Below are positions 51,010-63,999 of a stretch of 64,000 nt of DNA, piece by piece (the first letter of the stretch is position 1; every line of letters starts with the position of its first letter). A program made the translations under genes and the position numbers. The notes under the pieces were generated by a model. It was given only the letters and a program-made list of their open reading frames with translations, had not been told where the DNA came from and did no database searches. This DNA comes from Nostoc sp. DedSLP01 (lineage in GTDB: Bacteria > Cyanobacteriota > Cyanobacteriia > Cyanobacteriales > Nostocaceae), in NCBI GenBank assembly GCA_034530875.2, contig JAVRCJ020000011.1, positions 32,001 through 96,000 of the forward strand, read 5' to 3'.

Positions 51010-51588
51010 ATGAACGCACTAACTTTACAGTGGCACGATGCAGGTGCAGATAAAACTCAGAACATTTACGAACAACAGCCAAGTAAAAATCCTGGTACCG
51101 TTCGCATCGGCCGCGATCCTCTCCGGTGCGATATTGTTCTGAGTAATCCTACTGTATCTGGTTTGCATATTGAAATATTTTTTCATCCCCAGCAACAGCA
51201 GTTTTATGTTAGGAACTTGCGATCGCAAAATCCCCCACTAATCGATGGACGCCAACTAGTCCAAGGTGAACTAGCTTTAGCTGAAGGCACTAGTATCTCT
51301 TTGGGGCAAATACAACTCAAAGTTACTAGTGTTTCCACAGGCAATATTCCCGCAACAATTTTGATGCCACCGCAACCGCCAGCGGTAAACTCCCATCCAC
51401 CAGTCAATATCGGAAATCATCATCACCATCATCCAGTAATACCCCCCGCACCACCACAAGGAGTTTATGGTTTAAAATGTCCCAAATGTTACAAAGTTTC
51501 CCCACCAGAGAATCTGCAAATTGGCTGTCCTTGGTGCGGTACATCTTTGGCAGCCGCAGTGAGTGTGTTAGTAGCACCTGGGAGTTAG
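51010..51588 (+). CDS. FHA domain protein with a Pro/His-rich linker and a C-terminal zinc ribbon
   Basis: IGRD...VSGLH...N FHA motif; CPKC...CPWC. Confidence 0.88.
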   Translation: MNALTLQWHDAGADKTQNIYEQQPSKNPGTVRIGRDPLRCDIVLSNPTVSGLHIEIFFHPQQQQFYVRNLRSQNPPLIDGRQLVQGELALAEGTSISLGQIQLKVTSVSTGNIPATILMPPQPPAVNSHPPVNIGNHHHHHPVIPPAPPQGVYGLKCPKCYKVSPPENLQIGCPWCGTSLAAAVSVLVAPGS

Positions 51589-51795
51589 GGAGATGGGGAG
51601 ATGGGGAGGTGGGGAGATGGGGAGGTGCGGGAGGTGTGGGAGGAGAGGGGAGTGTGTGAGCAAGGAGAAGAGGGACAAGCATAAATTCTCTTTCCCCCAC
51701 ACTTCCCACACTCCCCACACTCGCAATGCCCAATGCCCCATACCCAATGCCCCATACCAAATGCCCCATACCAAATGACCAATGACTAATGACCA

Positions 51796-53754
51796 ATGAC
51801 TAATCAACTAAAAATCCAATTAAGTTGGGAAGATCCGGCAACGGGAGAACGGCGAGAACCTATGTTGAATGTACCGATCGCCTTTGGTCGGGAATTTGCC
51901 CGGTTGCCTGCGGAACTTGGAGGGCAGCGAGTTTCGAGGATGCTGTTGAATAGTAATGAAGTTTCTCGCTACCATGCCCTAATCGACTGGGAACAAAATC
52001 ATTTGGTGGTCATTGACCAAGGTAGCGTTAACGGCGTCTATGTCAACGGTCAAGAACAAAAGCGCAGTATTTTGTCTAATGGCGATACGTTACAAATTGG
52101 CCCGTATTTAATTGCGGTCAAGTTTGTTGGTAACACTGCTGAACCAGATACCGCGCCACCTTCAACGATTGGCTTTAACCCAAATACCAATATCCCAGAC
52201 CCCAGTTTGCCTGTAGCCCAGCCTGCGAATGCTGCTGGTACTAATTTTCCGCCACCAATTTTTCAAGCAGAAAAAGTCCCCATACTCGCGCTTTATGCTA
52301 CTGGGCTACCAGTGGATGAATTTGATTACCTGGCGATCGGGGCGGGAATCGGTAGCTTTGTTTGGGTTGATTTACTGCGAATTAGTGGCGTCCGTCCCGA
52401 GAAAATTGTAGCTGTGGGATTGGAGGCAGAACCTTATGCCCGTTATAAGCGCCTGTGTATGAATTCCCAAATTCCCCTATATGAAAGACTGCGGTCTAAT
52501 TCAGATTCTTGCCCTGATAATATTTGGGGCTGGCCTAGTTATGCGTTGCGGGAAGCTTGGGGTGACTTTGGCAAGGGACAAATTAACTCAGCATTGAAAT
52601 ATTTATGGCAGGTGTTTGCCGAACCAACATTTGCCGAAACTTATACACCGCGTGCTGGTAATGTTTTTAATTCCATTGACAGGGAGGCCAAGCGCATTGG
52701 TTGGAACCAAATTTATCGTTATGGGCGAGTCCGGGCAGTTCGCAAAACCGATGATGGTAGGTATTGCATAGCCTATTCTCGCGCCCCAGGAAATTATGCT
52801 TTTTTAGTTAGTCGTTATTTACATTTAGCTACTGGATATCCAGCAATTCAGTTTCTCCCAGATTTGCAAGCTTATAGAGAAAAATATCAAGATTTTCAAA
52901 CTGTTGTTAATGCTTACGAAGCACACGATCGCGTTTATCAGCAATTAGAGCAAAATGGCGGTACAGTATTGATTCGGGGACGAGGAATTGTGGCTTCGCG
53001 GATTGTGCAGCGGATTTATGAAGCCAGAAAGCGAAATCGCAATATTTCAGTTTTACATTTAATGCGATCGCCTAAACCCCAAGGCAACAAATTTCAAAAT
53101 GCCCAACGCCTAGTTAAAAATCATTATGAATTCCAACCCTTTAACTGGCCGAAAGCTTGTTGGGGCGGCGAACTCCGGGTCATGTTAGAAAAAGCCAGCC
53201 CCGACGAACGCAAAAGCTTACTAGCAGACTGGGGCGGTACCACCACCGCCGACCGCCACGACTGGCAGCGAATTACTGCCCAAGGGATAAGCGAAGGCTG
53301 GTATCAAATTACCTTCGGTGAAGTGCTGGATGTCGAACGAGATCCCCAAAACCGGACTATTACCCGTATCAGAGAAAAAAGCTTTGGCGAAATGAAATTG
53401 CTAGCTGACTTTATTGTTGATGCTACCGGACTGGATGCCAAAGTAAATGCTAGCCCTTTACTAGAAGATTTTGTCAAACATTACAACTTGCCACTCAATC
53501 ACTTGGGGCGATTAACTGTTGCTAACAACTTTGAATTAGTAGAAATGCGTAACGATAGGGGACAGATGTATGCAGCAGGGGCGATTACCCTTGGTGGGCC
53601 TTATGCCGCAGTTGATAGTTTTTTAGGCTTGCAATACGCCGCATTAGTTGCCGTTGACGGACTCGCCGCCGCCCGTGCGCCTGGAGTTCATAGGTTGAAT
53701 GCTGTAAGTTCCTTGAGGCAATGGTTGAAGTGGGCGTTAAATCAGTCACCTTAG
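51796..53754 (+). CDS. FHA domain fused to a flavoprotein-like (FAD/NAD(P)-binding) domain
   Basis: FGR..VSRYH..GSVNG FHA; IGAGIGS, ATGY, GRGIVA and DATG motifs. Confidence 0.75.
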   Translation: MTNQLKIQLSWEDPATGERREPMLNVPIAFGREFARLPAELGGQRVSRMLLNSNEVSRYHALIDWEQNHLVVIDQGSVNGVYVNGQEQKRSILSNGDTLQIGPYLIAVKFVGNTAEPDTAPPSTIGFNPNTNIPDPSLPVAQPANAAGTNFPPPIFQAEKVPILALYATGLPVDEFDYLAIGAGIGSFVWVDLLRISGVRPEKIVAVGLEAEPYARYKRLCMNSQIPLYERLRSNSDSCPDNIWGWPSYALREAWGDFGKGQINSALKYLWQVFAEPTFAETYTPRAGNVFNSIDREAKRIGWNQIYRYGRVRAVRKTDDGRYCIAYSRAPGNYAFLVSRYLHLATGYPAIQFLPDLQAYREKYQDFQTVVNAYEAHDRVYQQLEQNGGTVLIRGRGIVASRIVQRIYEARKRNRNISVLHLMRSPKPQGNKFQNAQRLVKNHYEFQPFNWPKACWGGELRVMLEKASPDERKSLLADWGGTTTADRHDWQRITAQGISEGWYQITFGEVLDVERDPQNRTITRIREKSFGEMKLLADFIVDATGLDAKVNASPLLEDFVKHYNLPLNHLGRLTVANNFELVEMRNDRGQMYAAGAITLGGPYAAVDSFLGLQYAALVAVDGLAAARAPGVHRLNAVSSLRQWLKWALNQSP

Positions 53755-53914
53755 TACTCTGCCAACCCAAAAATGTTAGGTGGAGGTTGGGTAAAGGGTA
53801 AAGGGTAAAGGGAAAAGGGTAAGGGATAAAAAACATGAGTCCCTTTCCCCCTTCGCCTTTACCCCGCTTGCGTTGCCTTGGCGTAATATTAGGAATACAG
53901 GAGAATATTTTCCA

Positions 53915-54472
53915 ATGAAGACTCAGTATTACACTGCCACCAGCTTAGATGGCTTCATTGCTGATTCAGAGAATTCTTTGGATTGGCTTTTTCAGTTCGG
54001 CGAAGTTGAAAATGGCAGCTATCCTAACTTCATCCGCGAAGTTGGCGCCATAGCAATGGGTTCGACGACTTACGAATGGATTTTAAACCATCAGAAGGAT
54101 GAAACAGGGGAGTGTCCGCAAGTATGGAGTTACGAGCAACCAACTTGGGTCTTTACCTCTCGCATTTTGCCTATCATCGAAGGAGCTGATGTCAGATTTG
54201 TGAAAGGAGATGTCCGCCCCGTACATCAACAGATGATTGAGGTTGCAGGTAATAAGAATATTTGGGTTGTGGGCGGTGGGGACTTGGTAGGTCAATTTTA
54301 CGATCGAGGGCTGCTTGATGAGGTCATTGTTCAGATTGCTTCGGTGACCCTTGGTAGCGGGGCACCATTGCTACCGCGCAAGATCGTAACACCTCCATTA
54401 AACCTTTTATCTGCAACGGTGTATGGTAATGCTTTTGCAGAGCTTCATTATGAAGTTGTCCGCCCGCGCTGA
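53915..54472 (+). CDS. Dihydrofolate reductase-like (RibD C-terminal) protein
   Basis: TSLDGFIA, MGSTTYE, WVVGGGDL and LGSGAPL. Confidence 0.9.
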   Translation: MKTQYYTATSLDGFIADSENSLDWLFQFGEVENGSYPNFIREVGAIAMGSTTYEWILNHQKDETGECPQVWSYEQPTWVFTSRILPIIEGADVRFVKGDVRPVHQQMIEVAGNKNIWVVGGGDLVGQFYDRGLLDEVIVQIASVTLGSGAPLLPRKIVTPPLNLLSATVYGNAFAELHYEVVRPR

Positions 54473-54745
54473 TAATATAGAGAAGGCAGGAGGCAGAAGG
54501 CAGAAGGTAAAACTATTGCTATTCCTAGCATTCACGCTTGTCATTATGTCCTAACATATCTGACTACGGCTATATGTGATGAAATCTGCGATCGCAATTG
54601 ACGCAGACCGCAACACCATTTTTTCTAAACAAAATCTGCATCTGCAAATAATATCGTGTCCGGCTAATCCTAGCTATGATAAAAAGATCTGTAAAATGGG
54701 AACAATTTTTAGAGACCGAGAATTAGCCATATAATCTCTAAAGAT

Positions 54746-57037
54746 ATGAAGCTTGTGTTGTATAAAAAGTTGTCTCTGCGATTTATTTTAGTTGTTCCTT
54801 TTGCTCTACAAGCTTTGATTTTAGTGGGATTAGTGGGCTATATATCTTTTAGAAACGGTCAAAAGGCAGTGAATCAGTTAGCCTTAAGGTTGGAGCAAAA
54901 GGTCAACCAACAAGTCGAACAACACTTGAATTCTTATCTAGCAGTTCCTCGGCAACTTCATCAAATTAATGCAGATGCGATCGCTAAGGAAGTAATTGAT
55001 ATTCATAATTTTCATAAAGCCGGTAATTATTTCTGGAAACAAGTTCAAGTTTATAAAGATATTAATTTTTTAGGATGTGTTTTATCTAATGGTGAGATGA
55101 TAGGTGCAGGTCGATGGTTGAAAGATAAAGGAGTGACAATTGAGGAGATTTCCACCAAAACGAACTATAAAGCCTACAGCTATGCTACAGACGTTCGAGG
55201 CAGTCGGATGCAAGTTGCTTTTATTGATAACTATAAACCCTTAGAAGATGACTGGTATACTCAAACTGTAAAGGCAGGTAAACCGATTTGGAGTTCAGTA
55301 TATCCAGCCCAGAGTGATATTGCAGACTACGTTGCTATTTCTGCTAATCACCCAATCTACGATAAAAAACACCAATTGCTCGGCGTATTAAATATTGATT
55401 TGCTTTTATCAAGCATCACAAATTTTGTAAATCAGTTAAATGTCAGTCCTTCTGGTGAAGTTTTAATCATTGAACGTAATGGACTTACGATCGCTAGTTC
55501 TGCTGATGAAAAACCGTTCCATGTAGCCAAGGGTCAACTTAAACGACTTCATATTTCTAATAGTCAAGATCCTAAAATTCGAGCTATAGCTCAACAACTG
55601 CAAAAAACATTTAGAGATTTTCAGACCATTCAATTTAGCCAAAACTTAGAGTTCCAATTCAATGGCGAACGTCAATTTGTTCAGATTACCCCTTGGCAGG
55701 ATGAGCTTGGCCTGAATTGGCTAATTATTGTTGTCCTTCCCGAACGTGACTTTATGGGTGAAATTAATGCTAACAAACAGACTACAATCTTACTTTGTAT
55801 AGCCGCCCTAATAATAGCGATCGCACTGGGATTGCTCGCCTCAAAGTGGATTATTCAGCCAATTTTAAACTTAGATAAAGCAAGTGCAGCAATTGCTGCT
55901 GGAGACTTAGAGCAAGTTGTTGAGCCTAACACTCTTAAAGAACTTAGTGGTTTAGCTGACTCATTCAATCACATGGCTCAACAGTTACGAGAATCTTTCG
56001 CAGTACAAGCTCGAATCTATATTGAACTAGAAAAAACCAATGAAGAACTAGAATTGCGAGTAGAACAGCGCACCCAGGATTTGCAACAAACTCTCAAAAA
56101 TCTCCGCAAGGCACAAGTGCAACTTATACAAATAGAAAAAATGTCTAGCCTTGGACAATTAGTTGCTGGTATTGCTCACGAAATTAATAATCCTGTTAAC
56201 TTTATTTATGCTAATCTTCAATATGCCTCTGAATATAGTCAGGGTTTACTCAAGCTGATTGATTTGTATCAGAAAGAATACCCTCAAGCAACTGCGGAAA
56301 TTCAAAAACAAATCAAAACTCTGGATTTAGAATATGTGCGTCAAGATTTACCGCAAATATTTAACTCCATGAGTACTGGCTCTGAGCGGATTCAAAATAT
56401 TGTTTTGTCATTACGAAACTTTTCTCGTTTGGATGAAGCCGAATTTAAAATTGTAGATATTCACGAAGGAATTGATAGTACTTTGATGCTCCTGAAGAGC
56501 CATTTAAGTTCTACTTCGCTACATCCAAATATTAAAGTTATGAAGAATTATGGCAGACTGCCTAAAATTGGCTGTTATCCAGGACAGTTAAATCAGGTGT
56601 TTATAGCTTTAATTATGAATGCTATTCATGCCATTGAGGAGGAGACTAGGAATGGTAAATGGCTTAAAAAAAAGGAAGAGGATTTTAAAGCTAATTTAGA
56701 AAATAAAAGCCCAAATCTCAAACCGAGAATTAAGTCCTCTCCTTGTATACAGATTAATACAGATATCATCGATCCCAATTACATTAAGATTAGTATTATT
56801 GATAATGGAATTGGGATTCCACTAGAAATTCAATCAAAATTATTTGACCCATTCTTTACAACTAAAGAAGTTGGGAAAGGAACAGGGCTGGGATTATCTA
56901 TTAGTTATCAAATTGTAGTACAACAACATGAAGGAAGTTTAGAAGTTAATTCAACTCCAGGGGAAGGAGCAGAATTTATTGTCACACTACCTGTTAAACT
57001 CAATGCAAAAAAAGGTGAATTATTAATTAGCACTTAA
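54746..57037 (+). CDS. Membrane sensor histidine kinase (Cache-HAMP-HisKA-HATPase)
   Basis: Two TM segments, WYTQT..GKPIWS Cache-like region, HAMP, AHEINNP H-box, DNGIG and GTGLGL. Confidence 0.93.
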   Translation: MKLVLYKKLSLRFILVVPFALQALILVGLVGYISFRNGQKAVNQLALRLEQKVNQQVEQHLNSYLAVPRQLHQINADAIAKEVIDIHNFHKAGNYFWKQVQVYKDINFLGCVLSNGEMIGAGRWLKDKGVTIEEISTKTNYKAYSYATDVRGSRMQVAFIDNYKPLEDDWYTQTVKAGKPIWSSVYPAQSDIADYVAISANHPIYDKKHQLLGVLNIDLLLSSITNFVNQLNVSPSGEVLIIERNGLTIASSADEKPFHVAKGQLKRLHISNSQDPKIRAIAQQLQKTFRDFQTIQFSQNLEFQFNGERQFVQITPWQDELGLNWLIIVVLPERDFMGEINANKQTTILLCIAALIIAIALGLLASKWIIQPILNLDKASAAIAAGDLEQVVEPNTLKELSGLADSFNHMAQQLRESFAVQARIYIELEKTNEELELRVEQRTQDLQQTLKNLRKAQVQLIQIEKMSSLGQLVAGIAHEINNPVNFIYANLQYASEYSQGLLKLIDLYQKEYPQATAEIQKQIKTLDLEYVRQDLPQIFNSMSTGSERIQNIVLSLRNFSRLDEAEFKIVDIHEGIDSTLMLLKSHLSSTSLHPNIKVMKNYGRLPKIGCYPGQLNQVFIALIMNAIHAIEEETRNGKWLKKKEEDFKANLENKSPNLKPRIKSSPCIQINTDIIDPNYIKISIIDNGIGIPLEIQSKLFDPFFTTKEVGKGTGLGLSISYQIVVQQHEGSLEVNSTPGEGAEFIVTLPVKLNAKKGELLIST

Positions 57038-57038
57038 C

Positions 57039-57139
57039 TATAGCAATCCTATTTAATTTACAAACCATTCGTGGAGGCAGGGAATAGGGAATGGGGAATG
57101 GGGAATAGATGTGTTTGCAACTCTTTTAGGACTGCTATA
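57039..57139. mobile_element. MITE-like element with an internal GGGAAT repeat
   Basis: TATAGCAATCCTA ... TAGGACTGCTATA TIRs, between convergent genes. Confidence 0.7.
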
Positions 57140-57224
57140 AATAAAATTATCTGTATGTAGCGTTTATGTTTGATTTGACTCAACTCACATTCTTTTCTGT
57201 TTCCTAACCCAAGAATAGAGCTTT

Positions 57225-57992
57225 TTAACGGGATTTTACGCCACAAGCAAAAATTACATAAAAGAAACCTGCTTCGCATTCTGGCAGTTGCCTAACTCTG
57301 ATATCTACATCAAAAAAACCATTATCCCAAAAACAATTGAGTACATCTTGCGGTTCTAGCTTAGTTGAAGGAAAATATAAGTCGGCTACTCGATAAAATG
57401 TTCCAGAACCACAAGCTGATGTAATTAATGTTCCTCCTGGCTTCACCATACTCATAATATTGCTCATATAAATACGCCAGGAATCTCGATTGGGACTGAT
57501 ACCTTCAGCGCAGTAGTGAGCTGTTACTAATGGATAAAATTCTCGCTTTTCTAAACCTAATGGATTTGTTTCTCGAACATCGCCAGGTAATAATTGCGTA
57601 ATCTGCTGTCGAATTTTTTGCTCTCTATTTTCTATATCTGTTTGTGTAGGATTCAGATTACCTTCTAAACGCAGAACTTCTGAAGTAAATTGTCGCCAAT
57701 TAAAAGCATCTGATTGATTTTTTACCCATTTTTGTAACTCAGATAAATTCGATTCTAAATACTCTGATACATGAATTTCTGCCGCTTTAGTTGCTAGTGG
57801 TAATATATGAGAAACTATGGGGCCGCTACCAAAATCTAAAGCAACTGGAACGGAAGAAACTCGCCGCAGCGATTCGACCAAAAATTCTAGACAAAATTTT
57901 TCATCATCCATAATACTTGCATAATATTCTCCAAGGTAATCTTTGGGGTTCCAAGCAGTATATTCAGCGTATTGCAGATTAGATGTTTGCAT
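57225..57992 (-). CDS. NNMT/PNMT/TEMT-family SAM-dependent N-methyltransferase (GntF-like)
   Basis: WNPKDYLGEYY, LDFGSGP, SEYLESN, AFNW, PGDV..NPL and KPGGTL. Confidence 0.85.
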   Translation of the reverse strand: MQTSNLQYAEYTAWNPKDYLGEYYASIMDDEKFCLEFLVESLRRVSSVPVALDFGSGPIVSHILPLATKAAEIHVSEYLESNLSELQKWVKNQSDAFNWRQFTSEVLRLEGNLNPTQTDIENREQKIRQQITQLLPGDVRETNPLGLEKREFYPLVTAHYCAEGISPNRDSWRIYMSNIMSMVKPGGTLITSACGSGTFYRVADLYFPSTKLEPQDVLNCFWDNGFFDVDIRVRQLPECEAGFFYVIFACGVKSR

Positions 57993-58108
57993 TTAATGCA
58001 CCTTTTGATTTACTAGTGTTGACTGGCCCCTTTGGGGCGGGTGTAGTGAAAATTTCCCTACACCCCACACCCTTTTCATCTGTATGCTTTTGCTACTATA
58101 GTTCCTAA

Positions 58109-61100
58109 TTAAATTGAATGGGAAAAACAGTTAGATTGGGGAGCTTCTAAAAAGCTACTTTCGATAAAATAATTTAAGTAAGTCTCGAGCAGGTTTTTGT
58201 CGGCAGCTGGACACTCGATCGCAGCACCATGCAATCCCTCAATTGTATTGCTACAGTCAAATACCTGAGTTCCAGCTAACCACAGTTCTAAGCGAGTGCA
58301 TTTATCATCTGCGATCGCCTCGGTAATTACTGAAGCTAAGGGAGCAAGGGCATTTTGTCTTTGTTTAATCGCAGTTTGCCATTGCTGGTAAGGTACTTTT
58401 TGAATAGAGTATCCAAAAGTGTTGAGCGCCTGAATCAAGTCGTCCATAGCCAAAGGTTGGGGATTGACTAAATGGAAAGCTTGGCCTATGGATTGTGGCT
58501 GTCGAGATAAATGCACGATCGCTTTACTGACATAATCCACGGGAGTCATATCGATGGTCAAATCGAGATTGGGAGCTTGTTGCAGTCTAACCATCGCCTC
58601 AATCAAACAACTAATTAAATCAGTTGTGTTACAGCTTCCCGTCTGGCTATGTCCGGTTACCATTCCGGGTCGATAAATGCAAACGGGTAAGCCTCTAGCA
58701 GCAGCCGAGGTAACTAACTGTTCTGCAACCCATTTACTTTGGGCGTAGCCGCCAGAAATTCCATTTCTGTGAACAATACTGTCGTTTTCATAGATAACTG
58801 GAACGCCTTTAGCTGCTAAAGATTCAAATACATCTAGAGTCGAAATGTAGTGTAGAGGTTTAGATTTACCGCTATTTGCTAGTTTTATAATTTCGTGGGT
58901 ACCCATGACGTTTGCAGCGTGCAAAGTCGCGTAGGGATAAAGTAAATTGACGTTTGCACCACTGTGATAAATCGCATCGATGGAGTCGGCTAGTGTCTGA
59001 AACTGTTGTTCCGTCAAACCTAATTTTGGTTGTGCTAAGTCACCTATGACTGGAATTATCCGCGTGTAAAATGCTTCAAATCCAGAAGAAAAATGTTGCT
59101 TGAGGCTATGGCGGAGTTTCTGATTTGCTTGGGATATGTCTTCGGCACGTACCAGACAATAAATTTTCGCTTGCGTTTGCTGCAATAGTTCGTAGAGTAA
59201 AAATCTACCGATAAATCCAGTTGCGCCAGTTAAGAAAATTGCTTCTGGTTCGGTTGATTGTGTAACCTGAGAAAAACGATATTGAATAGCGTTGTCAAGG
59301 ATAGCTTCGGCTTGGAGTTGTTGTAAAGTCATCCTTTCGGTAGCAGCTTGGACATCTGTACAGCTACGTTGAATCAAGCTTGCTAATGCAGCAATAGTTG
59401 GGACGTTCAAAAATTCTATTAGCGGTACTATTACTTGGTAAGCTTTTTCAACTTGAAAGATTAATTGTGTAGTTCGTAGGGAATCACCGCCTAAATCAAA
59501 AAAGTTGTCGTTGATTCCAATACCGGTAATTCCCAAAACCCCAGACCAGAGGTTAGCTAACTCTTGTTCTAAATCTGTACGCGGTGCCACGAATGCTGCT
59601 TCTAATGCTGGCCGATCGCAACTTGGAGCAGGTAGAGCCTGGCGATCGATTTTACCATTTACAGTCAGGGGCAGGGAATTGAGCAGCACGATTGCCGAAG
59701 GAATTATGTAACTTGGTAATTTACCTTTGAGATCCGAACGCAGTTGAGATACCAAGTTATGGGATATTTTGCTTTGTAAGGGATTGTTGGCGTACAGATG
59801 CCAGGGTTTGGATGCGAGGGGTTGAGCTAATGGGATGGCTGGCGTTGTGTAATGTTCGTTAGTGGAGTTATCTTGAAGCAACACATCATAATAGCCTTGT
59901 GAATTAGCTCCTGAATAACTAATGGCGATCGCATAGCCTGTTTCTTGGCTCAGTTTGCATAATGCTTCTGGATCTACACCTATCTGTTGGTTTATCCCAT
60001 TGACAGCTTGTCGCAACTCACCGACTGTTTTCGGACATTCAGAACTAGATAACAATTCGACTGTTTTGACATCAGCAATAACCTTGGCATGGGGAATAGC
60101 TCGAATACCTAAAATTGGCGGTTTGGTATCTTGCAAAAGCTGCTGTACAGATGACACAGATAAGTTTTGCTCCTGCCAGTTTAACCAAACAGAATTAATC
60201 GGTGTAGAAGCCTTTTGCCCAATTTCCAAAATTACATCGTAGCGAAAGCGATTGAGTTCATTGTCTGATTCACCATGTTTGATGCAAATACGGACTTGAT
60301 GAATTTCTGGGTATTCTTGCCCAAGTGCGTAGAAGAAATCTGGATCGATAGTCAGTTCTTCCTCTTGCTGCAACCGTTGCTCTACTTTGTGTCGTAGTAC
60401 CTCGATTGGTTCCTCATCTTCAGTTTGATAAAGTTCTATTGAGGCTGCAAAGGCTGTTAATAGTCCGTAACTCCGTATATCCCCGAGAAAAATGCATCCA
60501 CCCGGCTCAACGACCTTTATGGCTTCTGCCAAGACTTCCATCAGATAAGCCACACTGGGGAAATATTGGATCACAGAATTGATAATTACTGTATCGAAGG
60601 AGCAAGAACCGATTGCTTGAAAATCATGGGCAGGGCTTTGGTAAAGGCTGACTTGCGGTAAACTCAGTTCTGGTTTGGCAAGTTGTTGTTGTACGTAGTT
60701 GAGTGCGGTTTGTGAAAAATCAGTACCCAAATATTTTTGGCAGTGGGGAGCGACTCTAAACAACATTAACCCCGTACCGCAACCAATTTCTAAGACGTTT
60801 CGGGGTTGCAGCGACAAAATGCGATCGACAGTTCGATCCACCCATTCTTGCATTTGGACATCGGGAATCATTTGGCCTGTATAGCTGTCGAACCAACCAC
60901 TAATGTTAAATGTAGATTGCCAGCGATCGCCAACTCCATTGAATTCATCGGAGTCGTGAATCATCCGCCATTGGTCGATTTGTTCGTTTTCTAGAGTGGA
61001 CGAGTTAAAAACATCGGTAGTTTCAGCAGCCAAGTTTGGTACTACATAAGCAACCAATCTGCGATCGCCAGGTACATCTTCTCTGACAATTGCGATCGCT

Positions 61101-62431
61101 TCTTGCACGTTGGGATGTTGTTCTAAAGCCGTCTCTATTTCATTTAGCTCAATCCGGAAACCTCGAATTTTCTGCTGTTCGTCAACTCGATGTAAGTATT
61201 CCAGATTCCCATCTTCACGATATCTTACCCAATCGCCCGTTTTATAAAGACGAGTATTGCCTGAATGTTGGTGAGGATTGTTAATAAATTGAATAGCTGT
61301 GAGGTCTGGACGATTTAGGTAACTCCGTGCTAAACCTGCGCCAGCAATGTACAACTCCCCTGCGCATCCGACTCCCACCGACTGCAATTGCGCATCTAAA
61401 ACGTAAGTACGAACGTTATCTATTGGTTTACCAATAGGTAAAAACTCGCTGTCTATTGCTACTGCATAAGGGCCAGCCAAATCGCAAACTGTTGTCACTA
61501 CTGTTGCTTCAGTCGGGCCGTAGGTATTTACCAATCGGACATGAGGCTGAGTATGTTTTCGCCAAACTTCTAGCCAGCTAGGTAAGGCGCGTTCGCCGCC
61601 AATTATGACTATGCGTACAGATTTTGGTAATTGTGTGTGCGGTAACTCTGCACAGATTTGATGCCAAAAAGCAGTAGGCAAATCCAGTACTGTCAAATCC
61701 AACTCTTGACAAGCTTCTAGAAATGCCGGAATCGAACGCAGCATCTCTTGAGAGCGCAGTACTAGCGTTGCTCCTTGGGTTAGAGTCGTAAAGATTTCTT
61801 CTATAGATGCATCGAAATTAATTGAAGAAAATTGTAAAATGCGATCGCCTTTGTTAATTCCATATTCTCGACTCACGGATTGGATAAAATTACTCAGCGC
61901 TCCATGTTCGATGCTTACACCCTTGGGTTTGCCAGTGGAACCAGAGGTGTAAATGATATAGGCTAAATTATCTAAATTTGTTACAGATTCGGGGTTTTGT
62001 GTACTTTCTCGAGCAATAGTTTCCCAATCTGCATCTAAACAGATGGTAGTTGCATTGTGGTTCGGCAACTCTGAAAGGTATTTTTGCTGAGTTAATATAA
62101 TCGGAACTTGAGAATCCTCAAGTATGAAAGCAATTCGTTCTTGGGGATAAGTTGGATCGAGGGGAACGTAAGCTCCACCCGCCTTGAGGATTGCTAACAA
62201 ACCAACAATTGTTAAGAGCGATCGCTCCATAAATATACCGACCAACGTTTCAGGTCTAACCCCAAGTTTGCGTAGGTAATGAGCTAGTTGGTTTACCTGT
62301 TCGTTAAGTTCTCGGTAAGTATATTCTTGGGTTGCATACTTAATTGCGATCGCATCTGGAGCTTTGGCTACCTGAGCTTCAAACCAACTATGAATAGATG
62401 AATTGGTAACAATGCTTTCTACTGATAACAT
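58109..62431 (-). CDS. Stand-alone NRPS-like enzyme: adenylation - embedded N-methyltransferase - thiolation - thioester reductase
   Basis: A: YTSGSTGKPKG, YGPTE, YKTGD, NGKIDR. MT between A8 and A9: LEIGCGTG, NSVIQYFP. T: FFDLGGDSL. R: LTGATGFIG, YAQSKWVAE. No condensation domain. Confidence 0.93.
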   Translation of the reverse strand: MLSVESIVTNSSIHSWFEAQVAKAPDAIAIKYATQEYTYRELNEQVNQLAHYLRKLGVRPETLVGIFMERSLLTIVGLLAILKAGGAYVPLDPTYPQERIAFILEDSQVPIILTQQKYLSELPNHNATTICLDADWETIARESTQNPESVTNLDNLAYIIYTSGSTGKPKGVSIEHGALSNFIQSVSREYGINKGDRILQFSSINFDASIEEIFTTLTQGATLVLRSQEMLRSIPAFLEACQELDLTVLDLPTAFWHQICAELPHTQLPKSVRIVIIGGERALPSWLEVWRKHTQPHVRLVNTYGPTEATVVTTVCDLAGPYAVAIDSEFLPIGKPIDNVRTYVLDAQLQSVGVGCAGELYIAGAGLARSYLNRPDLTAIQFINNPHQHSGNTRLYKTGDWVRYREDGNLEYLHRVDEQQKIRGFRIELNEIETALEQHPNVQEAIAIVREDVPGDRRLVAYVVPNLAAETTDVFNSSTLENEQIDQWRMIHDSDEFNGVGDRWQSTFNISGWFDSYTGQMIPDVQMQEWVDRTVDRILSLQPRNVLEIGCGTGLMLFRVAPHCQKYLGTDFSQTALNYVQQQLAKPELSLPQVSLYQSPAHDFQAIGSCSFDTVIINSVIQYFPSVAYLMEVLAEAIKVVEPGGCIFLGDIRSYGLLTAFAASIELYQTEDEEPIEVLRHKVEQRLQQEEELTIDPDFFYALGQEYPEIHQVRICIKHGESDNELNRFRYDVILEIGQKASTPINSVWLNWQEQNLSVSSVQQLLQDTKPPILGIRAIPHAKVIADVKTVELLSSSECPKTVGELRQAVNGINQQIGVDPEALCKLSQETGYAIAISYSGANSQGYYDVLLQDNSTNEHYTTPAIPLAQPLASKPWHLYANNPLQSKISHNLVSQLRSDLKGKLPSYIIPSAIVLLNSLPLTVNGKIDRQALPAPSCDRPALEAAFVAPRTDLEQELANLWSGVLGITGIGINDNFFDLGGDSLRTTQLIFQVEKAYQVIVPLIEFLNVPTIAALASLIQRSCTDVQAATERMTLQQLQAEAILDNAIQYRFSQVTQSTEPEAIFLTGATGFIGRFLLYELLQQTQAKIYCLVRAEDISQANQKLRHSLKQHFSSGFEAFYTRIIPVIGDLAQPKLGLTEQQFQTLADSIDAIYHSGANVNLLYPYATLHAANVMGTHEIIKLANSGKSKPLHYISTLDVFESLAAKGVPVIYENDSIVHRNGISGGYAQSKWVAEQLVTSAAARGLPVCIYRPGMVTGHSQTGSCNTTDLISCLIEAMVRLQQAPNLDLTIDMTPVDYVSKAIVHLSRQPQSIGQAFHLVNPQPLAMDDLIQALNTFGYSIQKVPYQQWQTAIKQRQNALAPLASVITEAIADDKCTRLELWLAGTQVFDCSNTIEGLHGAAIECPAADKNLLETYLNYFIESSFLEAPQSNCFSHSI

Positions 62432-63271
62432 TAATTTTTTCCCAGCTAGTTTGATTGTTTAATTTGTAATCGTTGCAGTTTTACTCAGGATATTTAAGTC
62501 AGCTTTTATTTTTGGTAATTAATACAAAAGCTAAAAAAACGAATTTATCAAAATCGAATCAACACGCCATTCTATAAGGCTCTATTTGAGCCTAGCTAGT
62601 AGATAAATCTATCTTGAAATATTGCGTAAATATTCTTTAATATTTACTGTACAAACATTTGAGCTTCTTCAATAAGTAGCCCATTTAAATATTCCACTAA
62701 TTAGTTTTACTTTTATTAGTGCAGTAAAGTTTAGTCTATTCTGATTTTTGAATTATTCTTAATCTTGGCTCTAAATATGACCTGATTTATACTTAAATTT
62801 TATATTTTTTACCTCGATTAAAAATGTTTATGATTTTAACTTGTTACTGAAGTGTGGGAAAAAATAAGTAGTACACGCAGATTTATCATTTATCTATGAC
62901 TTACTTAAGTATTTTTTAATAAAATTAGAAAAAAAATAACTGTAATTCCCCTGAACTTAATAAGCAATTTTGCAATAAATTATACAACGTATTAATTAAT
63001 ACAGTAAAACATAAAGAGTGTGAATTATTACTTGCTGTTTGTTAAAATTTAAGTAAAAAGACTAAAAAGTTTATATTTAATTACCCAAATAATTTATAAA
63101 TTAAAGTACTAAAAAACACTCAGTGATTAAGTACTTGCATGACAAATGTTATGAAACTATGACATTAATAGTATTAACAGCAATCTGATTTGTTAGTTTA
63201 AAAAAAATCATTGCGGCAGTTACAGTATTTTATGGGTCATGCTAAGTGGAAAAACTGATGCAATTTTTGTT

Positions 63272-63313
63272 GTAACAATTATTACTTTAAGCAAACCATA
63301 AAAATAATATCAT
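63272..63313 (+). promoter_or_regulatory. Putative NtcA-activated promoter
   Basis: GTA-ACAATTAT-TAC (63272-63285), a 22-nt spacer, then TATCAT (63308-63313). Confidence 0.5.
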
Positions 63314-63332
63314 TTTTTGTTACTTAAGATCG

Positions 63333-63533
63333 ATGCTAAATAATAAAATTTATGCATTAGGTTCCGATAAATCAAATTATAACTTCCATTCCAAACCAAA
63401 CACAGTTAGAAAGCATTTTTTAGATGGGGAGTTTGAGGATTTCATGAAGCCAGTTTTCGATATCTTGATGCTTACCATAATCAAGGCGTCGATCGCAAGA
63501 GCAATCGTAATTTTACTGAAACAATTGGAGTAA
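63333..63533 (+). CDS. Putative small protein (66 aa; alternative 29-aa start at 63444)
   Basis: ORF starts just downstream of the NtcA-like promoter; hydrophobic C-terminus; GAGG precedes ATG 63444. Confidence 0.4.
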   Translation: MLNNKIYALGSDKSNYNFHSKPNTVRKHFLDGEFEDFMKPVFDILMLTIIKASIARAIVILLKQLE

Positions 63534-63562
63534 AATTACTTAGATAAAGAATTTCAAGCCTT

Positions 63563-63592
63563 GTAGAGGCGTTGTAGTGCAACGTCTCTACA
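63563..63592. repeat. GTAGAG-ACGTTGCA-type palindromic dispersed repeat
   Basis: TGTAGAGGCGTTGTAGTGCAACGTCTCTACA, same family as the palindromes near 3714 and 33640. Confidence 0.75.
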
Positions 63593-63681
63593 ACGATAAA
63601 TCAAGAGTTTTAGCGTTTAATCCACATAATGCGTAATTTTGAATTTTGAATTGGAGCAAAGCAACTTGACACTTTCTTTAG

Positions 63682-63999
63682 CTATCGTCCAACGGCAGCT
63701 TGATATAAAGATTGGATAGTTAGTCCATCGGTGGGATATTCAGCTACAGCAAAATTACATGTTACCTGAAAGCGATCGCCATCAAAAGCGGTAAAGATTT
63801 GCTGGCGTAAAGTAGTTAAAATTTCACTCAGGCGATGGTTGATTTCTGTTTTTGTTAACCCAGAAATTCCCACTACAAAATCTCCGTTACCCCAATAACC
63901 TAGCACTTCACCGCTACAAAATGTCGATTGAAATAAACGACTCCATCTTTGTAATACTTGATTGCCAGCTTCATGACCATATTTAATATTAATTTGGCG
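63682..63999 (-). CDS. C-terminal degenerate GGDEF domain of a gene starting beyond the window
   Basis: INIKYGHEAGNQVL...LGYWGNGDFVV...VAEYPTDG...LYQAA; the GGDEF motif is replaced by GNGDF. Confidence 0.8.
   Translation of the reverse strand, partial: RQINIKYGHEAGNQVLQRWSRLFQSTFCSGEVLGYWGNGDFVVGISGLTKTEINHRLSEILTTLRQQIFTAFDGDRFQVTCNFAVAEYPTDGLTIQSLYQAAVGR

Follow-up and report, generated by a model that had tools for sequence, protein, structure and literature searches.

We analysed a stretch of 64,000 nucleotides from Nostoc sp. DedSLP01 (contig JAVRCJ020000011.1, positions 32,001 to 96,000 of the forward strand), hereafter the window, in which positions are counted from the first letter. 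Three adjoining genes form the cassette described here. A gene on the plus strand (54746..57037) encodes a sensor histidine kinase of 763 amino acids, proposed as a receptor, with the order transmembrane segment (TM)-dCache_1-TM-HAMP-HisKA(H478)-HATPase. It converges with a minus-strand gene (57225..57992) for a 255-amino-acid methyltransferase of the NNMT/PNMT/TEMT family. On the same strand as the latter, and separated from it by 116 bp, is the gene (58109..62431) for a stand-alone reductase of 1440 amino acids that resembles a nonribosomal peptide synthetase (NRPS). It has an adenylation (A) domain interrupted by a methyltransferase (MT), a carrier (T) domain and a reductase (R) domain, and lacks a condensation (C) domain. 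An earlier sequence-only reading had taken the methyltransferase and reductase genes for a two-gene pathway bounded at 57225; it omitted the kinase, which belongs to the unit.

Pfam placed AMP-binding at residues 17-372 of the 1440-residue protein, AMP-binding_C at 431-466, an S-adenosylmethionine (SAM) methyltransferase at 546-648, PP-binding at 956-1020 and NAD_binding_4 at 1067-1305, and no match to Condensation was returned for this protein. On the minus strand of the window, these correspond to an adenylation core (61316..62383, residues 17-372), an N-methyltransferase inserted in the A domain (59792..60991, approximately residues 481-880, with its SAM motif at 547), a carrier domain (59372..59566, residues 956-1020, with Ser984 within GGDSL) and a terminal thioester reductase (58148..59239, residues 1065-1428). 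The interrupted A-MT domain of TioS (5wmm) could be aligned to residues 13-935 as a single stretch. TIGR01746 matches residues 1065-1428 with a score over its cut-off, and the nearest solved R domain is that of MxaA (4u7w, E 4e-101). All of the catalytic motifs inspected are intact (LEIGCGTG at 547, GGDSL, Lys927, TGATGFIG at 1068 and YAQSK at 1229). The inserted MT also carries VIINSVIQYFP and shares 41-47% identity with three MT domains that belong to multimodular NRPSs of this genome, where a phosphopantetheinyl transferase gene is present as well. The open reading frame (ORF), Pfam, TIGR01746 and the motifs thus agree on the architecture that had been read from the sequence.

For comparison we used the best 120 of 5931 homologues that passed E 1e-100, among 8000 scored. 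Since 88 of these 120 have the same stand-alone length (1370-1600 amino acids) and no ORF of at least 80 amino acids lies in the 1.25 kb upstream of the NRPS gene, the idea that the absent C domain is an artefact was rejected. Longer homologues do occur (23 of the best 120 exceed 1600 amino acids), including C-A-MT-T-R and bimodular forms, and a stand-alone form with a Gly pocket lies beside a free condensation-like gene (L189). These would suit an enzyme that supplies a larger NRPS with its terminal module in trans, with the PNMT-like methyltransferase tailoring the resulting peptide. However, no second NRPS gene was seen in the lysine-type loci described below, and the nearest NRPS cluster in the genome is ∼98 kb away and ends in its own thioesterase (TE). 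This explanation fits poorly and we consider it highly improbable. Separately, one homologue of 1586 amino acids (P0014) combines A-MT-T-R with an extra SET domain (PF00856), which has the fold of a lysine methyltransferase.

Pocket residues of the A domain were located by motif as D207, A208, E211, D250, I276, G278, T303, V311, V312 and K927. The resulting string, DAEDIGTVVK, is identical to that read by eye beforehand. The top NCBIfam match of the whole protein is MxcG, which we take to be specific for lysine. Among the 88 stand-alone homologues, 55 pockets have E239/D278, eight have E239/N278, 23 are Gly-like and two are of other types. Pockets with E239/N278, such as DVENVGAVSK, are presumably Arg-like, so some family members may use arginine. 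All 12 readable pockets of NRPS-type loci fit D-x-E-D-[IL]-G-T-[VI]-[VI]. The closest of 40 other A-domain matches in the window's genome (G000), with 56% identity, is module 2 of an AptA-like protein (C11:204353-210841) whose pocket, DTEDIGTVV, has eight of nine residues in common with the window enzyme. This protein comprises two A domains, two T domains and two condensation-fold stretches. Downstream of it are a C-A-T gene and then a C-A-T-C-A-MT-T-TE gene, and homo-amino acid genes flank the group. According to the accessible part of PMC9564503, module 2 of anabaenopeptin synthetases bears an epimerase and always loads Lys. In the module from the window's genome, the epimerase is assigned from position, and a D-Lys role would follow from the architecture. 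The cluster as a whole (C11:191281-213664; L168, L169) is anabaenopeptin-like, with five modules rather than six, the last being C-A-MT-T-TE.

The substrate is therefore best described as a basic amino acid, as had been suggested earlier, with lysine the best guess from the pocket and arginine or ornithine possible. With either of the latter, the product would be a methylated argininal or argininol, or a 3-aminopiperidine-type compound, and the remainder of the scheme proposed below would be unaffected; such a substrate is compatible with a signal and with a regulated metabolite alike. The best solved single A domain is ApnA A1 (E 3.5e-168), which accepts Arg or Tyr according to the portion of PMC11253843 that is accessible, and this favours the alternative, as do the eight E239/N278 pockets. 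Against this, ApnA A1 agrees with the window pocket at only four of nine positions, as compared with eight of nine, and the highest identity, for the D-Lys module of the same genome. Distant clades of the methyltransferase also have lysine-linked partners. We consider arginine or ornithine unlikely.

The 255-residue methyltransferase matches PF01234 with 129.4 bits (gathering threshold 25, E 1.8e-37), and its solved relatives are NNMT and PNMT; its family and its position relative to the NRPS gene are as first reported. The sequence-only reading had also likened it to GntF of guanitoxin biosynthesis. It exceeds the lax GntF cut-off NF041360 (115.7 versus 60), but true GntF proteins from gnt loci score 613-615 bits, share 30-33% identity with the window protein and occupy a long, distant separate branch. 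In the accessible part of PMC10673588, GntF works with GntCDGE in making pre-guanitoxin. When ten gnt-locus proteins were searched in the window's genome, only scattered best matches with 23-37% identity were found, and three of the proteins gave none. With no gnt cluster around the gene, a GntF identity was rejected: the resemblance is one of family only, and the protein belongs to a clade of its own. That clade is rare, being represented by one of 60 relatives, by one of 400 other genomes in a draw from the phylum (which held two further GntF matches) and by one of 126 other genomes of the genus (which held one further GntF). Several homologues bear the GntF name in NCBI, so public annotations may cause false alarms in annotation-based toxin surveys. 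True GntF genes were seen at L171 (G524), L067 (G096) and L066 (G366). In G524, a member of the window's genus, the gene has gnt-like neighbours; at L066 no gnt neighbours are visible within 20 kb.

To describe the genomic setting of the clade, scans were made with a 39-row methyltransferase alignment, which yielded 23 genome loci and 26 metagenome loci. A tree of 53 rows was built after two duplicate rows had been removed and matches shorter than 200 amino acids excluded. Sixteen rows form one branch (support 100), of which 13 are of the NRPS type (support 99) and three of a decarboxylase type. An intact A-MT-T-R gene is directly upstream of the methyltransferase gene in 9 of the 13 NRPS-type loci (the window, L004-L009, L012 and L013), which bears out the expectation that the two genes co-occur in other genomes. 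Of these loci, L009 is from a strain in culture, Leptolyngbya sp. PCC 7375. At L003 and L010 the NRPS gene is broken only by a contig end or scaffold gap. L010 first gave the impression of a methyltransferase without an NRPS, which was rejected: the R-domain end is past a scaffold gap, and the remainder of the gene is on another scaffold, where it runs into a gap. The NRPS and methyltransferase genes of G050 are on different contigs, and L011 retains just an R-domain remnant, with a PIN gene in between. In the remaining three loci (L014, L015 and L019), the NRPS is replaced by two enzymes, fused or separate: a group II pyridoxal phosphate-dependent decarboxylase and a SAM methyltransferase of class I. 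This pair could provide a second route to methylation and loss of the carboxylate.

In 14 of the 16 loci, a dCache_1-HAMP kinase gene is located within 1.2 kb of the gene for the methyltransferase or for its synthase. Five gene arrangements are represented. The sensor gene is convergent with the methyltransferase in the window, in tandem downstream of the NRPS type in L004-L010, L012 and L013 (with two sensors in L008), divergent from the NRPS alone in G050, divergent from the decarboxylase in L014 and L015, and downstream of the decarboxylase type in L019. Sensors of this family are not confined to the cassette; six were found among 6080 filtered ORFs of the window's genome. A tree was made from 15 linked domains (14 genomes) and 48 paralogues. 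The latter came from the genome of the window, from five genomes that have the methyltransferase and from five of the same genus that lack it. The 15 linked domains fall on one side of a branch and the 48 paralogues on the other (Shimodaira-Hasegawa-like approximate likelihood-ratio test, SH-aLRT, 99). In each of four genomes with the system, the best match to the window's sensor is the linked sensor.

The reverse test gave a consistent result. A profile of 13 linked domains was run against the 401 genomes of the phylum draw at E 1e-95, with five candidates scored per genome. Matches were obtained in 55 genomes, and the two best were the two genomes that have the system, both of which are in the profile. 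None of 28 further top-scoring loci from this draw fell inside the linked-sensor branch, and no A, R, PNMT or decarboxylase match was found in 20 wider neighbourhoods of unlinked high-scoring sensors.

Exceptions to physical linkage also bear on whether the kinase is a passenger. If the reductase and methyltransferase were a free-standing alkaloid or amino-alcohol pathway, the kinase could be a neighbour carried along by shared descent. The two biosynthetic genes are indeed adjacent in 11 of 13 loci, the two assembly breaks counted, and half of the linked genomes are kin. However, the sensor persists across five arrangements, and also where the genes have become separated or the NRPS has been replaced. 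In G050 the NRPS, though apart from the methyltransferase, retains the sensor. In G541, where locus L003 has no sensor, one is present on another contig and falls deep within the branch; counting it, a sensor belonging to the branch is present in 15 of the 16 genomes in which the methyltransferase clade occurs. In L014, L015 and L019 the sensor remains in the branch despite the exchange of synthase. In G448, where the NRPS is a remnant, none of the three sensors found belongs to the branch. The passenger explanation fits these data poorly and appears improbable. The sequence-only reading was thus right that the two genes belong together, but as a description of the unit it falls short, since a specific dCache kinase is inherited along with them in scattered cyanobacteria and a methyltransferase and decarboxylase can take the place of the NRPS.

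The extracytoplasmic dCache_1 domain of the window's sensor (54836..55795, plus strand) was modelled with a mean predicted local distance difference test score of 80.7. It resembles sensors of amines and amino acids, and its best Foldseek matches are McpX, PscC and MkcA (E 1e-11). Alignments to the solved chemoreceptors 6mni, 3c8c and 6iov set the register YDPRVRPWY = YKPLEDDWY. In PctA, as described in the accessible text of bioRxiv 10.1101/2023.04.06.535858, the ligand carboxylate is bound by an arginine (R126) two residues before the W-Y pair, the motif otherwise being Y121, W128, Y129, Y144 and D173. The window's sensor has the corresponding Y163, W170, Y171, Y186 and D218, but aspartate (D168) replaces the arginine, and it is therefore not a dCache_1AA sensor. 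Aspartate occupies this position in 14 of 15 linked sensors versus 1 of 48 and 3 of 51 others, and the amine-binding Asp is retained in all 15. A pocket changed in this way fits a cationic ligand without a carboxylate, as reduction or decarboxylation would leave.

On these grounds we propose the following mechanism. The NRPS-like enzyme would adenylate L-lysine and load it onto its own carrier, where the alpha-amine would be methylated with SAM. Release with NAD(P)H would give an aldehyde, which might close on the epsilon-amine to a seven-membered imine, or else the alcohol N-methyl-lysinol. The PNMT-family enzyme would then methylate a remaining amine, yielding a small cationic diamine without a carboxylate. 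The product would exit the cell and bind the dCache_1 domain of the adjoining kinase, thereby altering phosphorylation of His478 and feeding a phosphorelay encoded elsewhere. The three genes would thus constitute a cell-cell signalling cassette, a synthase for a methylated lysine-derived amine together with its cognate receptor. We put the probability of this reading at approximately 0.55.

Several observations weigh against it. The cassette contains no exporter, which counts mildly, and no DNA-binding regulator. The Lys pocket printed in the accessible part of PMC9564503 agrees with the window pocket at just four of nine residues, and the substituting decarboxylase is nearer to aromatic amino acid decarboxylases (4obu, 3e-58) than to desferrioxamine decarboxylase (5o5c, 6e-47). 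Seven of the linked genomes are close kin with a common gene order, so the count of 14 loci overstates independence and the five arrangements are the better measure. All trees are quick searches without bootstrap. Branch support drops to 88 when the 28 loci are added and 25 distant rows are removed, and whole-branch support is 85 in a 41-row tree. The window's own sensor is on a long basal branch, and the row most similar to it (53% identity) is a sensor whose gene adjoins that of a terpene synthase. Linked sensors are not alone in having an acidic residue at the arginine position, as Glu is found there in 18 of 48 and 38 of 51 unlinked rows; the change thus marks a wider group of non-amino-acid sensors. 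The position of Tyr186 is Tyr in 10 of 15 linked sensors and in none of the three of the decarboxylase type, whose ligand may therefore differ.

A further objection is that a kinase sensing an outside cue and switching the pathway on would show identical co-inheritance, and the genomic data do not cleanly separate the two cases. In this alternative, our main rival, the kinase is an upstream regulator responding to an environmental or host cue, and the pathway makes a metabolite for defence, osmotic balance or storage in the form of a methylated lysine-derived amine or a cyclic imine. A single sensor branch is expected here as well, the lack of an exporter is readily accommodated, and many NRPS genes of cyanobacteria have a kinase next to them, among them those for three other NRPSs with an R domain in this genome. 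Note, however, that the annotated loci have further kinases beside the sensor, but none was found with a DNA-binding response regulator there, and that the pocket suits a carboxylate-free amine, the expected product of both synthase types. Pairing of Ala- and Gly-pocket A-MT-T-R enzymes with other dCache sensors (see below) points the same way. A regulatory kinase is, in our estimation, somewhat unlikely, and signalling is favoured over it because of the missing DNA-binding regulator and the change in the pocket. The REC-wHTH-Hpt-REC-GGDEF regulator encoded upstream (from 63682) was considered as an output and rejected as part of the cassette, since its matches in genomes of the same genus are located elsewhere and no such gene was seen in the other linked loci.

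Synthase and proposed receptor are co-inherited and specific to each other, as in autoinducer pairs. In CqsA/CqsS and LqsA/LqsS, an autoinducer synthase is paired with a membrane kinase. The window system has in common with these a small biosynthetic gene co-inherited with a membrane histidine kinase, the proposed sensor of the product, and differs in its enzymes, its proposed amine product, its dCache_1 sensor, its cyanobacterial hosts and in that its receptor is putative. A Nostoc minicluster of sesquiterpene synthase, cytochrome P450 and hybrid kinase has reportedly been described by Agger et al. in 2008, with signalling proposed. There too a small synthase stands beside a sensor kinase, and L148, a locus of such a type, contains the nearest sister of our sensor branch; the window cassette has non-terpene chemistry and another synthase and tailoring enzyme. 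By analogy, the cassette may work like a synthase-receptor autoinducer pair, yet it is a member of no such family.

Of the enzymes themselves, the window reductase is built like an A-T-R reductase, in that its A, T and R domains have intact motifs and a C domain is absent, and like a TioS-type enzyme, in that the MT is within the A subdomain and has an intact SAM motif. Stand-alone A-T-R reductases (fungal Lys2, the piperazine synthases LnaA/HqlA/CpsA and the glycine betaine reductase ATRR) activate one amino acid, tether it and reduce it off without forming a peptide bond. The window enzyme differs from them in that its A domain is of the bacterial NRPS type and interrupted by an MT, and in its partners, a PNMT-family enzyme and a sensor kinase. 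MxcG (C-A-T-R), which presumably releases a lysine residue reductively, is its top NCBIfam match at 859 bits, below the NF038078 cut-off of 2300; the window enzyme lacks the C domain, has the inserted N-methyltransferase and has no catechol genes nearby. GntF has its Pfam family in common with the window methyltransferase and differs in identity, branch and cluster setting. With dCache_1AA/AM sensors (bioRxiv 10.1101/2023.04.06.535858, accessible text), the window's sensor shares the fold, the W-Y pair and the terminal Asp, and it keeps the first Tyr of the AA motif, which is lost in AM sensors. No description of this cassette was found in the literature searched, most subscription papers and supplements being outside the search; nor was a described product for the architecture, as the sequence-only reading had stated.

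The cassette is contained in a variable stretch (53756..63690), as judged by comparison with five same-genus genomes. These match up to 53755, and the next gene matches elsewhere in them, so the cassette is located at a break in synteny. A 13-bp inverted repeat lies between the NRPS and methyltransferase genes (58039..58065). Scans for promoters and terminators gave counts at chance level (26 versus 28.1 and 6 versus 7.4, respectively), and the repeats upstream are weak AT-rich pairs only. Two neighbouring FHA-domain genes (51010-53754) are conserved in the five genomes; in the product of the second (652 amino acids), the long C-terminal part contains a Rossmann-like motif and matches nothing in Pfam. 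Two related genomes have genes for CheW and CheA at a distance of three genes downstream from the sensor pair (L009:16812-20398 and L013:16651-20122). The three other reductase-ending NRPSs in the window's genome (G000 C1:245294-254569, C49:45019-49980 and C71:17841-20918) are each beside a kinase of ∼1800 amino acids. The C1 type was also seen at L071 and L190, and in C1 and L190 a PhyH-type gene is located downstream.

Similar neighbourhoods exist around other synthases. An MT-T-R query matched at least 7 of the 401 genomes in the phylum draw, a lower bound because two candidates were scored per genome. Both lysine-type enzymes have the full cassette. Of four other stand-alone enzymes, two are beside dCache_1 hybrid kinases, one is beside a phosphotransferase-EamA pair and one beside a condensation-like gene. 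The pockets of the two kinase-linked enzymes are, we assume, those for Ala and Gly, and L070 is a third Ala-type case with a dCache kinase. In these three loci (L187:8553-17692, L188:1295-11902 and L070:176-7210), Ala- or Gly-like A-MT-T-R genes are upstream of the hybrid kinase genes, and N-methyl-alaninol or N-methyl-ethanolamine are candidate signals. At L186:8618-14771, the genes after a Gly-pocket A-MT-T-R gene encode a phosphotransferase like APH/choline kinases and an EamA transporter, and phospho-methylethanolamine or choline might be made by this route.

The sensor branch has its nearest sisters at L148:4174-11705, with a terpene synthase-P450 pair, and at L157:9301-13863 and L159:6497-10953, each with a P450 and an uncharacterised gene for a protein of 230-243 amino acids. 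In the window's genome, a paralogous dCache kinase gene (C10:217975-222547; L206) is oriented divergently from genes for a haem-oxygenase-like DUF3865 protein and a Rieske oxygenase, and might represent another synthase-sensor cassette.

Distant relatives of the methyltransferase in Armatimonadota and Abditibacteriota (L016, L018, L022, L024, L025, L027, L028 and L033) are encoded by one or two PNMT-like genes, together with genes for an aldehyde dehydrogenase, a GGDEF-HD-GYP membrane protein and a protein like class I lysyl-tRNA synthetase (LysRS). The HIGH motif of the last reads DERN in 10 of 10 cases, and an ordinary class II LysRS is present in all five tested genomes that bear it. An unannotated protein of 320-400 amino acids with a signal peptide is also encoded in this cassette. 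Soil metagenome contigs (L035, L037 and L051) combine a TonB receptor, a PNMT-like gene, a GGDEF-like gene and a C-A-T-R gene with pocket DAESIGTVV. Lysine-handling enzymes and signal transducers are thus recurrent companions of the methyltransferase clade.

From these neighbourhoods we tentatively suggest, at somewhat short of even odds, that cyanobacteria have an undescribed family of cassettes in which a mini-synthase and a dCache kinase together form a private chemical language. One sensor lineage would correspond to lysine-derived methylated amines made by A-MT-T-R or by a methyltransferase and decarboxylase and finished by a PNMT-like enzyme. Other sensors would correspond to Ala- or Gly-pocket A-MT-T-R enzymes, to a terpene synthase with P450, or to a haem-oxygenase-like enzyme with P450 or Rieske oxygenase.

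To our knowledge, few pairs of cell-cell signal and receptor have been genetically defined in cyanobacteria, and we know of no ligand for most of their dCache sensor kinases. The cassette supplies both the enzymes for a candidate ligand and a putative receptor, making the question testable with three purified proteins. A stand-alone methylating amino acid reductase is also a possible route to N-methyl amino alcohols, and the replacement of one synthase by another is an example of two unrelated synthases being retained alongside a single lineage of proposed receptors. If the wider suggestion is true, it would offer a parallel to the biogenic-amine signals of animals, and cyanobacteria would possess genetically defined quorum-sensing or hormone-like systems.

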